Sequence record: OZ035756.1 | DNA from: Tequatrovirus LF73P3 | Length of the DNA stretch: 64,000 nucleotides | Reading direction: 5' to 3' (one strand) | In this document: piece after piece, positions 3,609-62,117 of the stretch | Numbering within the stretch: position 1 is the stretch's first letter | How the letters are laid out: the number at the start of each line of letters is the position of its first letter | Position numbers and translations under genes: made by a program | Notes under the pieces: model-generated | Database searches by the model: none | What the model was told of the DNA's origin: nothing | Seen by the model: only the letters and a program-made list of their open reading frames with translations

Positions 3609-3626
3609 CGTTTTGTGAAAAAAATT

Positions 3627-3658
3627 TGAAATAAAAAAGGGAGAGCCTCGGCTCTCCC
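3627..3658 (-). terminator. Rho-independent terminator (GGGAGAGCC-GAGG-CTCTCCC hairpin followed by U-run on minus strand)
   Basis: perfect 8-bp GC-rich stem followed by TTTTTTATTT in the minus-strand sense, downstream of gene 52. Confidence 0.7.
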
Positions 3659-20824: not shown

Positions 20825-21427
20825 TTATAGATTAAATCCTTCAAAATCAAGAGTATAGATAGTGTATGTTGAATACTTTTTATACTCGTATCTATCCGCA
20901 ATTCTAAATACACTTCCAGCTGGTATCATTACTTCTTGTTCATCTGAAACTAATTCCATATTACGATAACGATGGCTATCCGGAAATTTAAAACTCGGGC
21001 TATATTCTTTACAACGTAAAGCTTTTATAGCATACTCCTGGAAATTAAACACCATAGGAGCTTTGAATTCAAAAATAACTTGTGTGTTGTATTCTAATCC
21101 AGAAGCAAAATGTAGAGCTATATTTTTATCATATGAAGCTGATACTACTTTATCAAATGTAATAATATCAATTCCTTGATTTAACACCTGTTTAGTCTCA
21201 ACTGGAACACCTCTCCAAAGAGGTTTATCGTTTGGAACCAAACGAGATTTGATTATTTCATTTAACCAAGAATGATCGTCTGGCTTATTAGTAATACAAT
21301 GAATTAAAAGTTCAATTTCAGATAAATTAAATCCTTCGGAAAGTAATTCTTCACGAATAGAAGCACGCACCGATGCATCCATTGATTTGATTTTAAAATC
21401 TTTTAATTGCATTGCTGAATATTTCAT
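20825..21427 (-). CDS. modA: ModA ADP-ribosyltransferase
   Basis: 200 aa; R-S-E motifs (WRG, SAS, EQEVMIP). Confidence 0.8.
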   Translation of the reverse strand: MKYSAMQLKDFKIKSMDASVRASIREELLSEGFNLSEIELLIHCITNKPDDHSWLNEIIKSRLVPNDKPLWRGVPVETKQVLNQGIDIITFDKVVSASYDKNIALHFASGLEYNTQVIFEFKAPMVFNFQEYAIKALRCKEYSPSFKFPDSHRYRNMELVSDEQEVMIPAGSVFRIADRYEYKKYSTYTIYTLDFEGFNL

Positions 21428-22047
21428 TCAACTACCTCAATATCATACACTTTAAATGTTCCAAATGAATCGTGTAATTTTTCTTTTGAAATAGAAGTTA
21501 TTTTATACTTTCCAATTGGAATCATCCATTCTTGTTCACGCACAATCATCATTAAGTTATCAGTACGTTCTGAATCTAATCCATCAGTATCTTCATATGT
21601 ATACTTAAACTCAGTATTAGGAGAAGAAAGTATAATATCGCTGATATGGTCAGAATAATTAAAAGCTTTATCAGTTTTTAAGCGAAATATTATTTCAGTG
21701 GAATATTCAACATAAGAAAAACCACATGCTGTGTGCAAACTAGTAGTAAATGAATCTACTCTGTTCGTTGAAAACACTTCTCCGATTTGTAAATCTTTAA
21801 TGAGTTCTTTTGTCGATTTTGATATACCACGATATAGCTGATAAGGCGATTTAGTTAAATGCTTTTTAGCGATTTTATTCAACTGCTGATGAAGAGCTTC
21901 ATTCTTTTTGGCTTCCATACATTGCCAAAGAATTGACTGTTCAAAGTCAGTAAATTTTTCACAGACCTTTTTATACATATCATATTGAAAATCGACACTT
22001 TCAGCTTTTATAGATAACTGTTCAACATCTGCAAGATTAATAATCAT
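21424..22047 (-). CDS. modB: ModB ADP-ribosyltransferase
   Basis: 207 aa; R-S-E motifs (YRG, STN, EQEWMIP). Confidence 0.8.
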   Translation of the reverse strand: MIINLADVEQLSIKAESVDFQYDMYKKVCEKFTDFEQSILWQCMEAKKNEALHQQLNKIAKKHLTKSPYQLYRGISKSTKELIKDLQIGEVFSTNRVDSFTTSLHTACGFSYVEYSTEIIFRLKTDKAFNYSDHISDIILSSPNTEFKYTYEDTDGLDSERTDNLMMIVREQEWMIPIGKYKITSISKEKLHDSFGTFKVYDIEVVE

Positions 22048-58436: not shown

Positions 58437-59405
58437 TTATTTCAGAAGAGTAACCTCAGCGATTTCTTGCCAACCGTTTTTGTCGGTCATAATAAAGTCA
58501 GCAAGATAAAGAGCAGTACGCAGTGAAACATTGCGTAAACGATTAACATTAACTTTCATCCATGATAATGCTTTATAAGTTTCTTCATCAGAAAGACCGC
58601 GCTTTTGCATCATGTCAGTTGAAAGAATAACATCTTCAACCCTGACCATAATTTCTTCATTAGTGTGAACACCCAAATCCAAATAAACCGAGCGGGACAC
58701 TAATGCTTGTAAATGTGGAGCAAGTTTAGTACCACGGTCTAATTCGCGGTCAATGTCAACGTTTGTGATAAAAACAATCGTTCCTTTAAATTCAAACTCA
58801 CGGTCAATGCCTTTTTCTTCTAAGTAAGAAGATGCAGTGCTCCAGCAGACTTTACGGGTCTCTCCAGTGTCCAGAGCAGCTTTTAGAAGATTAAGAATGT
58901 CCATATCAGAGAAAACATCCACATCATCAATCAAAAGGACAGAATTCTCTTCACGATTATTCCAAAGCTGCTCATAAAGACCAATACCAGAGATTTTACC
59001 ATTAATGCTTTTATATTCAATGTATCCGTTATCATTTGCTTTATTTAAAGCTTTATCTAAAGAATACGTTTTACCAATACCTGCTGCGCCAGAGATAATT
59101 AATGAACGAATATTTCCATTAATAATACCATTCGTCATCATTCCCATAACATTAAATCTTTTATTAATGCGGGTTTTCATATCTTCATATGATTCTTTAA
59201 CTTCTTCAACTTTTACACCATCATATGAAATATCTGATTTGTAAACCCAAACACCGCGACGTTTACCGTCAATTTCAACAAAAACTTTACCATCTCCTTG
59301 TGCATCTACCGGAGCATTATCTGGGAACCATTCGCCTAAGAGCTCAAAAGTTCCAGAGATTTCTTTACCGAAGTAGATACCCTTATTGATAGTTACAGTT
59401 TTCAT
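58437..59405 (-). CDS. AAA+-type P-loop ATPase (about 322 aa)
   Basis: Walker A GAAGIGKT, Walker B LLIDDVD, sensor-like FITNVD; ATG at 59405 with SD GGAG. Confidence 0.6.
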   Translation of the reverse strand: MKTVTINKGIYFGKEISGTFELLGEWFPDNAPVDAQGDGKVFVEIDGKRRGVWVYKSDISYDGVKVEEVKESYEDMKTRINKRFNVMGMMTNGIINGNIRSLIISGAAGIGKTYSLDKALNKANDNGYIEYKSINGKISGIGLYEQLWNNREENSVLLIDDVDVFSDMDILNLLKAALDTGETRKVCWSTASSYLEEKGIDREFEFKGTIVFITNVDIDRELDRGTKLAPHLQALVSRSVYLDLGVHTNEEIMVRVEDVILSTDMMQKRGLSDEETYKALSWMKVNVNRLRNVSLRTALYLADFIMTDKNGWQEIAEVTLLK

Positions 59406-59474
59406 TTTATTCTCCAATTTCACATTTGTTTTGATAGGGTAATAGTATCACACTACTACCCTACTGTAAACAAT

Positions 59475-59738
59475 TTATTTTAATGTTTGCCAAATTTTTA
59501 CTGCTTCGCGACGAGATACTTCTACAGCTCCAAGTTCTACGGCTTTTTGGCGTCGGCGAGCATGTAAGTCATAATGTTTAATGCGTTTATCTTGAAACCA
59601 AGAACGTTTCATTCCTATTGCTTCTGCCATTTTATGAAGCTCTTCAATATCTCCATCAGTGAACATATGACAATTTTTAGTTGGATGACCGCGAAGTTTC
59701 CATCCATGATTCATTAAAACATCTACGTAAACTGTCAT
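59475..59738 (-). CDS. small conserved protein, DUF4031-like (87 aa)
   Basis: MTVYVDVLMNHGWKLRGHP...HYDLHARRRQKAVELGA pattern. Confidence 0.5.
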   Translation of the reverse strand: MTVYVDVLMNHGWKLRGHPTKNCHMFTDGDIEELHKMAEAIGMKRSWFQDKRIKHYDLHARRRQKAVELGAVEVSRREAVKIWQTLK

Positions 59739-59884
59739 TGATTCTGCTCCAAATATGTTTCTATAATTTTCTGAGCGAGATAAACTGCGTTATCTTCAGT
59801 TGCATCTTCTAAGAAATTTTCAAAATAAGCTGAAATTTCTTCTGTGTCAATCAACTTTTTTACTTCAATTAACGTAGTTTTCAT
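59735..59884 (-). CDS. small acidic protein (49 aa; trimmed to cassette ATG)
   Basis: ATG at 59884 within conserved leader. Confidence 0.4.
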   Translation of the reverse strand: MKTTLIEVKKLIDTEEISAYFENFLEDATEDNAVYLAQKIIETYLEQNQ

Positions 59885-59919
59885 TTTATTCCCCCAAATC
59901 CGTATCAGTTGATAGTTGT

Positions 59920-59949
59920 ATAGTACCACAGTATGCTTTGGTTGTAAAC
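59920..59949 (-). promoter_or_regulatory. Early promoter cassette (GTTTAC, TGGTACTAT)
   Basis: minus-strand GTTTACaaccaaagcatactgtggTACTATACaactatcaactgatacgg. Confidence 0.6.
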
Positions 59950-59968
59950 CGTTTTGTGAAAAAAATTT

Positions 59969-60000
59969 TGAAATAAAAAAGGGGACCTTAGAGGTCCCCT
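59969..60000 (-). terminator. Rho-independent terminator (GGGGACC-loop-GGTCCCC plus U-run)
   Basis: 7-bp GC stem followed by UUUUUUAUUUC on minus strand, directly after stop at 60010. Confidence 0.7.
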
Positions 60001-60009
60001 TGCGTTAGT

Positions 60010-60495
60010 TTATACCATTTCTATTATGTGCATATTCTTTTTGCTGTCAAAATATATGCTTTTAACTGTTAACTCAGAATTAATTGGCAGTAAAAACTCT
60101 CTTTCATAATCTACCATACAAAGATTATCATAAAGTTTGTTAAGCTTATCATCATCAGTTTGACCAGATTCTTCAATTGCGATTAAATTTTCTAAAATGT
60201 CAATCATGGCAGTCGAATAGTCAAAAACGTTTGCATTTTTTAACACTACTAAAACATTAGTCATATAGCGTTCTGCAGCAAACGTTTCAGCTATATGAGA
60301 CTCACTGCTAAAGGAAGTTATTCTTTTAAATTTGATTCTCCTATTAACTTCAAACTTATAAGATAGCACTTCCTCTATTGTAAGTCCTCTAAAAAGTATG
60401 TCTTTAATCTCAAGTTTGTCTTTAATGTAATCATTAACACGCTTATGATTAAAATCATTAATTTTGTTGCCAAGGCATTGCATTAAAATATGCAT
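60010..60495 (-). CDS. putative ADP-ribosyltransferase-fold protein (R-S-E class, ModA/ModB-like), 161 aa
   Basis: motifs LFRGLT, SFSSES, YEREFLLP with spacing like ModA (WRG/SAS/EQEVMIP) and ModB; SD GAGGA. Confidence 0.5.
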   Translation of the reverse strand: MHILMQCLGNKINDFNHKRVNDYIKDKLEIKDILFRGLTIEEVLSYKFEVNRRIKFKRITSFSSESHIAETFAAERYMTNVLVVLKNANVFDYSTAMIDILENLIAIEESGQTDDDKLNKLYDNLCMVDYEREFLLPINSELTVKSIYFDSKKNMHIIEMV

Positions 60496-60542
60496 TGTAT
60501 TTTCCTCAATTTTTAAAGAACAATTAACTAACTTACAAATAT

Positions 60543-60572
60543 ATTATAATATGCTTTGCGGTAGAAGTAAAC
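60543..60572 (-). promoter_or_regulatory. Early promoter (GTTTAC, TATAAT)
   Basis: minus-strand ttGTTTACttctaccgcaaagcatATTATAATat. Confidence 0.55.
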
Positions 60573-60588
60573 AACTTTGTGAAAAAAT

Positions 60589-60620
60589 TTTGAAATAAAA
60601 AGGGAGCCCGAAGGCTCCCT
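60589..60620 (-). terminator. Rho-independent terminator (AGGGAGCC-UUCG-GGCUCCCU plus U-run)
   Basis: 8-bp stem with UUCG tetraloop followed by UUUUUAUUUC. Confidence 0.7.
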
Positions 60621-60621
60621 A

Positions 60622-61635
60622 TCATTTATAATAACTTCGATGGTTTTCAAGATAAACCCTCTCAAGGAAGTCATCCCAGAAACCCATGTCTACTTTTTGC
60701 TGCATACCGTTCTTAGAAGCTTCAATGGATGCTGCTTCTACTTGATCGACCACATCTTCCAAAAACTCTTGAACAGTTTTAAATGGATGTTTACCCAACT
60801 TCACGTCGAGAATAAATGGAGCGTCTTGAAGTGGATAGACTAAGTCACCAGTTTTGTAAATTTCCAATAGTTGGAGTCCACCACGGCAAGCATGACTCAG
60901 AGCTTTCCAGTCAATGCCCTCATTCGCTTCAGCCTTACGAGCACGTTCGCCGTATTCAGCATCAAGTTTATTCAAAGATTGCTTAAGCTCGATAAGAGAA
61001 AGCGTTGTCTGATATTTACGACCCAACACAGTGTAGAACGTTTGTGGACCTGTTTTCTCATGATTATGGAACACCCATTCACAGAATTCGTTCTCTGGAA
61101 GACGATGCTTAATATCTTCAATCTTAGTTCGACGTTGCTTAATGGAACCGTCTTCTTGATAATCAACCCACTGATCAGGGATTTGATTAACTACTTTCAA
61201 TACATCACGTAATGCGGCCAAACGAGAACCCTTAACACCGTATTTAGAAGCTTGCTTGCGAACATATCCTAAGTAGGATTTCATGTTAGTCGTATAAAAA
61301 CGAGAACGATTGTCTTGAATAAACTTCCATACATCAGGCAAATCAGATTTAACTACCAGTTCAGGTGGAGTGTGGAGCATATCCAATGCTACAGTTTCAC
61401 CATCTGCTGCTAATTTAAAGAAATACTTAAGACTGTATAGTTCATGGTCAATATCATCTTTAGTGTTTTTAGATGATGTGTTGTTAGTGTTTTTACTCAT
61501 ATGCTCTTTAACATTTCCGATAAGAATATCACGAGCAGGAGGAACAAAGATTTCTTTAAAATCTACATCAGATTCTGGAGTAGAAGTTCCATAAAGATGA
61601 CTACCAAAATAGCTTTTCATTACTGTTTTCATCAT
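60622..61635 (-). CDS. Pol-beta-superfamily nucleotidyltransferase-fold protein (337 aa)
   Basis: N-terminal YFGSHLYGTSTPESDVDF fits the G[SG]x(9-13)DxD NTase signature; helical C-terminal domain. Confidence 0.5.
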   Translation of the reverse strand: MMKTVMKSYFGSHLYGTSTPESDVDFKEIFVPPARDILIGNVKEHMSKNTNNTSSKNTKDDIDHELYSLKYFFKLAADGETVALDMLHTPPELVVKSDLPDVWKFIQDNRSRFYTTNMKSYLGYVRKQASKYGVKGSRLAALRDVLKVVNQIPDQWVDYQEDGSIKQRRTKIEDIKHRLPENEFCEWVFHNHEKTGPQTFYTVLGRKYQTTLSLIELKQSLNKLDAEYGERARKAEANEGIDWKALSHACRGGLQLLEIYKTGDLVYPLQDAPFILDVKLGKHPFKTVQEFLEDVVDQVEAASIEASKNGMQQKVDMGFWDDFLERVYLENHRSYYK

Positions 61636-62117
61636 TCAGCCTTATATTCAATAACAGGACATACTTTAGCTTTACGCGCTTTTAAAAATTCGACGATAAT
61701 AGATTTCTTGGGTTGAATAGGCTCAAGTCCATTTTTGATTCGTTCTTCGTTTTGTACAATGAGCTCAATTTCTTTATTGAGCTTTCGGTCGTTATATTTG
61801 TCTAACAACCAGGAAGGACCAATTACCGCCCCGACAGCAATAAGAACCATGACCGATAATGCTAAAATGCCTATACCAATTGAAGCTGGAATTAATGTCC
61901 ATAGACTACTAAAGACAAAGAATTTAATTAAAATTTCTTGGCCAATTATTGCAGCACCTGTTAAAGTTGCAAATCCAACAATTGAAACCGCTAATACCGG
62001 GAGAAACGTTTTCCAAAAATAAGCACATAACGTTTTTGGACGATTCCATGTGCTGTTAAATGCCGAGTAAATTTTAAAGTGCCAAGAGTTTTCATTAATA
62101 ATCATAATTATAATCAT
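61632..62117 (-). CDS. hypothetical membrane protein (161 aa, 2-3 TM helices)
   Basis: hydrophobic core FLPVLAVSIVGFATLTGAAIIG... and ILALSVMVLIAVGAVIG; 4-nt overlap with both neighbours. Confidence 0.5.
   Translation of the reverse strand: MIIIMIINENSWHFKIYSAFNSTWNRPKTLCAYFWKTFLPVLAVSIVGFATLTGAAIIGQEILIKFFVFSSLWTLIPASIGIGILALSVMVLIAVGAVIGPSWLLDKYNDRKLNKEIELIVQNEERIKNGLEPIQPKKSIIVEFLKARKAKVCPVIEYKAE

Follow-up and report, generated by a model that had tools for sequence, protein, structure and literature searches.

The three ADP-ribosyltransferases of bacteriophage T4 are textbook host-takeover enzymes. ModA ADP-ribosylates the alpha subunit of RNA polymerase at Arg265, and the targets of ModB include S1, EF-Tu, trigger factor and rL2. 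The ModB targets are translation-related (PMC2988021, PMC10468400), and ModB also performs protein RNAylation, in which NAD-capped RNA is attached to the substrate (PMC10468400). A second body of work concerns the PeSLs, shuffling cassettes of T4-type phages that consist of a stem-loop followed by an early promoter (PMC2839356, PMC4122927). These were first described by Arbiol et al. in 2010 (PMC2839356), and a promoter consensus for the T4/PST group, TTTACW-N17-TAYWAT, was given by Comeau et al. in 2014 (PMC4122927).

The DNA analysed here, a 64,000-nucleotide stretch of Tequatrovirus LF73P3 (record OZ035756.1) referred to throughout as the window, encodes a further protein of the Mod family, named here ART. 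In the reading that we consider probable, ART is an accessory, immediate-early, arginine-specific mono-ADP-ribosyltransferase, carried on a 623-bp mobile unit bounded by PeSLs; we infer its enzymatic activity, arginine specificity, timing and target. The genes needed to follow the comparison are these:

20828..21427, minus strand: ModA orthologue, 97.5% identical to T4 ModA; comparison paralogue, outside the cassette
21427..22047, minus strand: ModB orthologue, 94.7% identical to T4 ModB; comparison paralogue, outside the cassette
58437..59423: nrdC.10 homologue, P-loop NTPase (Pfam: weak P-loop/STAND NTPase matches)
59475..59738, minus strand: DUF4031 gene
59735..59884, minus strand: 49-aa ORF
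60010..60495, minus strand: ART gene, 161 aa, Mod-family (ModB-like), with R36-G37, S61-x-S63 and E131-x-E133
60622..61635: nrdC.11 homologue, RlaP-type nucleotidyltransferase

The order along the minus strand is nrdC.11 homologue, ART, the 49-aa ORF with the DUF4031 gene, and nrdC.10 homologue. Many GenBank records name the nrdC.10 and nrdC.11 homologues “thioredoxin”, which appears to be a carry-over from the nrdC gene name. The original prediction, made from the letters of the window, had placed a 161-aa ORF at 60010..60495 without stating its strand; the ORF is present, on the minus strand, with an ATG start at 60495 and a product of 19 kDa and pI 5.4. ModA and ModB, which it had located 40 kb away, are both encoded in the window, ~38 kb from ART. 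It had also held that T4 has no such gene in this region, and this is correct: T4 has a 114-bp nrdC.11/nrdC.10 intergenic region instead, and its sole match to the ART ORF is modB itself. As the T4 gap is 114 bp and ModA and ModB are 2.5-5% different, the window comes from a Tequatrovirus relative of T4 and not from T4. Across 59400-61700 the best matches are phages 215Ecol030PP and ACG-C40 (93-94% identity), and phage BW-1 is 98% identical across the part that it shares.

Similarity to ModB can be detected directly. Within the window, tblastn aligns ART with ModB residues 39-192 at 30% identity over 159 aa, and the E value of 4e-12 means that this likeness is not due to chance; against all phage records T4 modB is matched at E 6e-5, and ModA gives no significant direct tblastn match within the window. 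ART also matches PHROG 832, “RNA polymerase ADP-ribosylase” (E 5.8e-24), and Pfam family PF26816 (Mod_ADP_RT) is precomputed on homologues with 93%, 61% and 53% identity to ART (P0001-P0003). Local Pfam and NCBIfam scans of ART returned nothing, a result that is uninformative for Pfam, since the set searched has no PF26816 model and gives no match for ModA or ModB either. Word-indexed protein searches gave few relatives (3, 12 and 13), and the family was sized by running a profile against all of 1.84 billion representative proteins. With just 30 relatives at E <= 0.001 in that search, the Mod family is small and phage-restricted. The subfamily of ART forms a single 50% cluster, followed by five metagenome-only proteins (78-98 bits), a ModB-type representative (63 bits) and a ModA-type representative (44.5 bits). 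ART is a genuine paralogue of ModA and ModB, and is closer to ModB than to ModA.

The active-site motif points in the same direction. In a 34-member family alignment, which served as the comparison with ModA and ModB suggested alongside the original prediction, the invariant columns are R36, G37, S61, E131 and E133 and no others, together making up the R-S-ExE motif. In ART this is carried by LFRGLT (R36), SFSSES (S61-F-S63) and YEREFLLP (E131-R-E133), and R36, S61, E131 and E133 align with R73, S99, E171 and E173 of ModB. Mutation R73A inactivates ModB, and arginine-specific ADP-ribosyltransferases are marked by the ExE form of the motif (PMC10468400). The R-S-E triad as first described holds for the three motifs and for the 72 residues from S61 to E133; the step from R36 to S61 is 25 residues, however, and not 23.

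Among PDB chains a sequence search found no Mod-family match to ART; the only match, to a methyltransferase at E 0.52, is due to chance. Folds were compared instead, with an AlphaFold2 model that draws on 21 sequences and has high confidence (pLDDT 92.5, pTM 0.85). Its best 50 PDB matches in Foldseek are R-S-E-type ADP-ribosyltransferases, or effector and toxin entries of that family, throughout. They include HopU1, the 6drh toxin, C3 exoenzyme (C3bot), iota Ia, Vis, Certhrax and ExoS/T, with probability 1.0. In a viral model library the closest entry is the ACG-C40 “ADP-ribosylase” K4FJU3 (TM 0.94), followed by ModA/ModB homologues (TM 0.8-0.87). ART is thus predicted to have an ADP-ribosyltransferase fold, in line with the structural check proposed for it, and the initial assignment to a ModA/ModB-like enzyme agrees with its ModB similarity, PHROG 832, PF26816 on its homologues, the motif and the modelled fold.

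ART is nevertheless not a typical family member. It has the sequence, R-S-ExE motif and predicted fold of the Mod family, but neither the full-length architecture (~200 aa, with a four-helix N-terminal region) nor the mod-locus position, two features that are typical of the family and not strictly defining; the characterised Mod enzymes are all longer. Compared with the ModB model, ~38 N-terminal residues that hold its first two helices (ModB 5-14 and 18-31) are missing, and long ordered helices at 93-110 and 115-131 occupy the place where ModB has a helix and then a low-confidence loop. The short length could impair or change the function of ART. Since the first two ModB helices are missing from the modelled protein and the helical insert that precedes its ExE loop differs from that of ModB, ART is likely to have a different target set.

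Being the shortest family member, with two N-terminal helices gone, ART might also be a dead or decaying paralogue: a pseudoenzyme, a decoy, or a remnant on its way to loss. T4 and most relatives are without the gene, and the nearest ART allele, that of BW-1 (OR125554.1, L002 2634-3118; 99.4% identity), is frameshifted. The pattern of substitution argues otherwise, as the dN/dS of the window allele against the T2 and ACG-C40 alleles is 0.11-0.13, which shows that the gene is under purifying selection. Moreover, all five family-invariant residues are kept, the fold is compact and confidently predicted, the gene is full length in 42 of the 43 records that carry it, and relatives of only 53-61% identity retain the motif. 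The BW-1 lesion itself is a single homopolymer base and may be a sequencing error. Taken together, decay seems very improbable, and a functional Mod-family enzyme is preferred.

In BW-1 an A6 run at nucleotide 255 of the ART gene is one A short, and the record annotates a pair of “RNA polymerase ADP-ribosylase” fragments; the gene may truly be inactivated there, or the homopolymer may have been misread in sequencing. As the gene is frameshifted in BW-1 and T4 does without it, ART is dispensable, at least on laboratory hosts. Between the ACG-C40 (L001:3110-3595) and T2 (BBC14712.1; L005:2501-2986) alleles there are ~7.5 non-synonymous and ~0.5 synonymous differences, a nominal dN/dS of 3.4 from tiny counts; these differences could hint at episodic diversification, on counts too few to interpret.

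The gene is closely framed by candidate expression signals:

59920..59948, minus strand: downstream PeSL early promoter TTTACA-N17-TACTAT, 59948->59920, from a pattern scan
59979..60001, minus strand: downstream stem-loop terminator, 60001->59979, AAGGGGACC-TCT-AAGGTCCCCTT plus T-run, the predicted ART transcript end
60504..60507, minus strand: Shine-Dalgarno GAGG, 8 nt 5' of the ART ATG, read from sequence
60543..60571, minus strand: early promoter TTTACT-N17-TATAAT, 60571->60543, putative driver of the ART gene, from a pattern scan
60601..60620, minus strand: upstream stem-loop terminator, 60620->60601, AGGGAGCC-TTCG-GGCTCCCT plus T-run, from a pattern scan

The minus strand of each flank of ART carries a G+C-rich hairpin and T-run, and beyond these a promoter of sigma-70/T4-early type; this is the arrangement of hairpin terminator and early promoter that had been noted at the outset and that the pattern scan recovered on either side. 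The promoters and terminators are consensus matches, known from sequence alone. The upstream hairpin is the predicted end of the nrdC.11-homologue transcript and would form the stem-loop half of the upstream PeSL; in phage UFV13 an identical hairpin is listed as the nrdC.11 terminator (PMC5931544). The downstream PeSL promoter is predicted to drive what follows it: the 49-aa ORF and DUF4031 in the window, nrdC.10 in T2 and T4. A chance origin for the ART ORF is ruled out by its homology, its dN/dS and its dedicated promoter, Shine-Dalgarno and terminator. Within the 3' end of ART, just 5' of its terminator, lies the region's closest match to the sigma-70 consensus (TTGACA-16-CATAAT, 11/12; 60050->60023, minus strand), which in such A/T-rich DNA is possibly due to chance.

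Both flanking elements fit the PeSL definition and the TTTACW-N17-TAYWAT consensus. Between the stem-loop and the promoter of each lies an A/T-rich spacer:

59944..59978, minus strand: A/T-rich PeSL spacer, second copy, 35 nt, direct repeat
60567..60601, minus strand: A/T-rich PeSL spacer, upstream copy, 35 nt, comprising the T-tail and the A/T tract upstream of the promoter

The two copies form a direct repeat (D1) of 35 nt with 77% identity and a start-to-start distance of 623 nt. Its 24-nt core pattern is expected 0.00 times in shuffles of the window, and its presence on the two flanks is therefore not due to chance. Far from the ART cassette, a further spacer copy occurs at 3612-3635 on the minus strand (TTTATTTCAAATTTTTTTCACAAA, 1 mismatch), which is consistent with PeSLs forming a dispersed repeat family in the genome.

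The corresponding site in T4 shows what this arrangement may mean. The left part of the T4 intergenic region (nrdC.11 end and stem-loop) matches the upstream PeSL at 34/35 positions and the downstream PeSL at 20/40, whereas the right part (promoter and leader) matches the T2 downstream PeSL at 57/57 and the upstream PeSL at only ~25/60; the ~30-nt spacer is common to the T4 hybrid and to both flanking PeSLs. Matching the upstream element on its left and the downstream element on its right, T4 carries the product or the substrate of a crossover in the spacer. Its single hybrid PeSL is the empty site expected under the mini-circle model of PeSLs, and the spacer repeat is the putative crossover zone.

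Directly 3' of the ART cassette lies a second, independent insertion, the DUF4031 module (59424-59935, minus strand). Its boundaries are a 19-nt sequence from the leader and start of nrdC.10, repeated at 59397-59415 and 59876-59894, and duplicate TTTACA-17-TACTAT promoters (59948->59920 and 59470->59442). The module is found in 153 phage records, with or without ART. All four states of the site exist: neither insertion in T4, ART alone in T2 and BW-1, DUF4031 alone in HY03, and both in the window and ACG-C40. The presence/absence breakpoints fall inside PeSLs.

Distribution among phages was a further check suggested with the original prediction, and presence across T4-like genomes proved patchy. 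The ART gene is present in 43 phage records, including T2 but not T4, and nrdC.10 in ~500 at >95% identity; ART is an accessory gene, carried by ~9% of sequenced close relatives. It is also present outside the genus. The ART proteins of Salmonella phage STML-198 (Gelderlandvirus) and Citrobacter phage CF1 (Moonvirus) have 92.5% identity to that of the window, and their cassette DNA 91-93%, whereas the flanking nrdC.11 and nrdC.10 proteins have 66-67% and 77-78%, and flank DNA 67-75%. The block of high identity starts at ~60581, inside the upstream PeSL spacer, and ends just past the stop codon in STML-198 and after the downstream PeSL in CF1. Within Tequatrovirus the relation is reversed, with flanks at 98-99% and ART at 93-94% identity. 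As the cassette is 91-93% identical across three genera with flanks of only ~67-75%, it has moved horizontally. The proposal of an independently acquired gene is thereby strongly supported, by the hybrid empty site of T4 and by a cassette more similar between genera than its flanks.

There are also more distant relatives. A 61%-identical protein is encoded at a different locus, on a metagenomic T4-like contig between regA and the DNA polymerase gene 43, with its own hairpin downstream, and a 53%-identical one follows an RlaP gene and is flanked by a hairpin on each side. The former (L006 5001-5546) is on a 101-kb Logan contig, ERR12726568, from an uncultured T4-like phage; its called start adds ~24 residues and is probably upstream of the true ATG (MHILMACLG...), and a candidate MotA-type middle promoter upstream was read by eye.

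The sequence elements, motif and fold together suggest how the cassette might work. Host sigma-70 RNA polymerase would start, as soon as infection begins, at the cassette's own strong early promoter of T4 type, and a monocistronic ART mRNA would end at the downstream hairpin. The protein would bind NAD+ through R36 and S61-x-S63, and E131-x-E133 would transfer ADP-ribose onto arginine residues of one or more host proteins; conceivably the transferred group is an NAD-capped RNA, as with ModB. Recombination in the shared ~30-nt spacer would insert or delete the 623-bp unit with its two PeSL ends, and would account for the patchy distribution of ART and its transfer between genera.

That the main substrate is something other than protein arginine, such as a nucleic acid or a small molecule, or that ART is specialised for RNAylation, is an improbable alternative to this scheme. 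It draws on the RNAylation performed by ModB, the closest characterised relative (PMC10468400), and on a fold match to Vis toxin with agmatine (4xzk). The ExE motif, by contrast, is the mark of arginine-specific enzymes (PMC10468400), ART is an acidic protein (pI 5.4) with no obvious nucleic-acid-binding feature, and the data equally fit ordinary protein ADP-ribosylation. Modification of protein arginine is kept as the preferred reading of substrate type.

As to which protein, the host-takeover or anti-defence role suggested for ART may lie in general takeover or in countering a strain-specific host factor; the accessory, mobile character of the gene keeps the latter in play. The more specific idea of an anti-defence effector, in which ART would act not on the core transcription or translation machinery but on a host immunity protein or toxin particular to certain strains, and so be a host-range determinant, would refine the preferred explanation without contradicting it, and is possible though on balance unlikely. 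It would suit the dispensability of ART (T4, BW-1), its patchy occurrence (43 records against ~500 for nrdC.10), its recent cross-genus transfer into Salmonella and Citrobacter phages and its place on a PeSL cassette in a hyperplastic region. The 7.5 non-synonymous against 0.5 synonymous differences between the ACG-C40 and T2 alleles, tiny counts though these are, would also agree, and phage ADP-ribosyltransferases with anti-defence roles exist, AcrIF11 being an example (PMC12421852). The overall dN/dS of 0.11-0.13 is low, however, with no sign of an arms race, the cassette holds no partner gene, and ModA and ModB, the relatives whose activity is characterised, have RNA polymerase and the translation apparatus as their targets. 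In addition, no PADLOC model matched the ART ORF or its neighbours, which leaves a defence-system origin unsupported. A still more particular version, that mobile ART is a host-range or counter-defence module that ADP-ribosylates or RNAylates a strain-restricted factor of Enterobacteriaceae (for example an immunity protein or toxin), is doubtful. If true, T-even-like phages could exchange ART across genera by means of its PeSL cassette, and T2 and T4 would be a natural plus/minus pair for finding the new target.

ART is of a known kind, a member already catalogued by homology in RefSeq, UniProt, Pfam and PHROGs, and the view of it as an unannotated gene was mistaken: about half of the 43 records say ADP-ribosylase, ModA or ModB. 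RefSeq YP_006986647 has “RNA polymerase ADP-ribosylase” with the note “ModB”, UniProt K4FJU3 has “ADP-ribosylase”, and other records have modA_2, modB_2 or ModA; roughly half, the original T2 records included, have “hypothetical protein”. The “RNA polymerase” in the database label has no specific support for ART, the name having been transferred by homology from ModA. Literature searches on a third Mod paralogue, nrdC.10/nrdC.11 and ACG-C40 found no paper on the gene. The value of the present analysis is as a pointer to an experimentally untouched enzyme and not as a discovery: a minimal additional ModB-like enzyme, absent from T4, is encoded by T2 and by ~9% of the close relatives that have been sequenced. 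T2 and T4 offer a natural comparison, and the 19-kDa core should help in asking what sets target choice and the ability to perform RNAylation.

Set against the described systems, ART most resembles T4 ModB, with which it shares homology over 159 aa at 30% identity, R-(G)...S-x-S/T...E-x-E in register, the predicted ADP-ribosyltransferase core, an early-gene context in a T4-type phage, and an acidic product of similar pI. It differs in having 161 aa rather than 207, without ModB residues ~1-38 and ~10 C-terminal residues, and in the helical insert before the ExE loop. It also lies in the nrdC.10/nrdC.11 hyperplastic region with its own predicted promoter and terminator, whereas modB is in the mod locus and is co-transcribed with modA. 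T4 ModA has the same family and motif, and early expression, which is predicted for ART, but is more distant: in the profile search the ModA-type representative scored 44.5 bits and the ModB-type one 63. The bacterial R-S-E toxins and effectors share the fold of the ART model (Foldseek E down to 2e-6) and the motif class, at just 8-16% identity and TM ~0.45-0.59; unlike them, ART is a phage-encoded protein, predicted to be intracellular and early, with no secretion, translocation or immunity partner and with a reduced N-terminal helical region. As for the cassette, two tandem PeSLs bracket a variable gene in a hyperplastic region, just as in the PeSL papers (Arbiol 2010; Comeau 2014). The nrdC locus is not discussed in those papers (“nrdC” occurs 0 times in PMC4122927), and the ART cassette, in contrast to theirs, is also seen to have moved between three genera. 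Though not new in kind, the locus illustrates gene shuffling by PeSLs with unusual clarity, between-genus transfer included.
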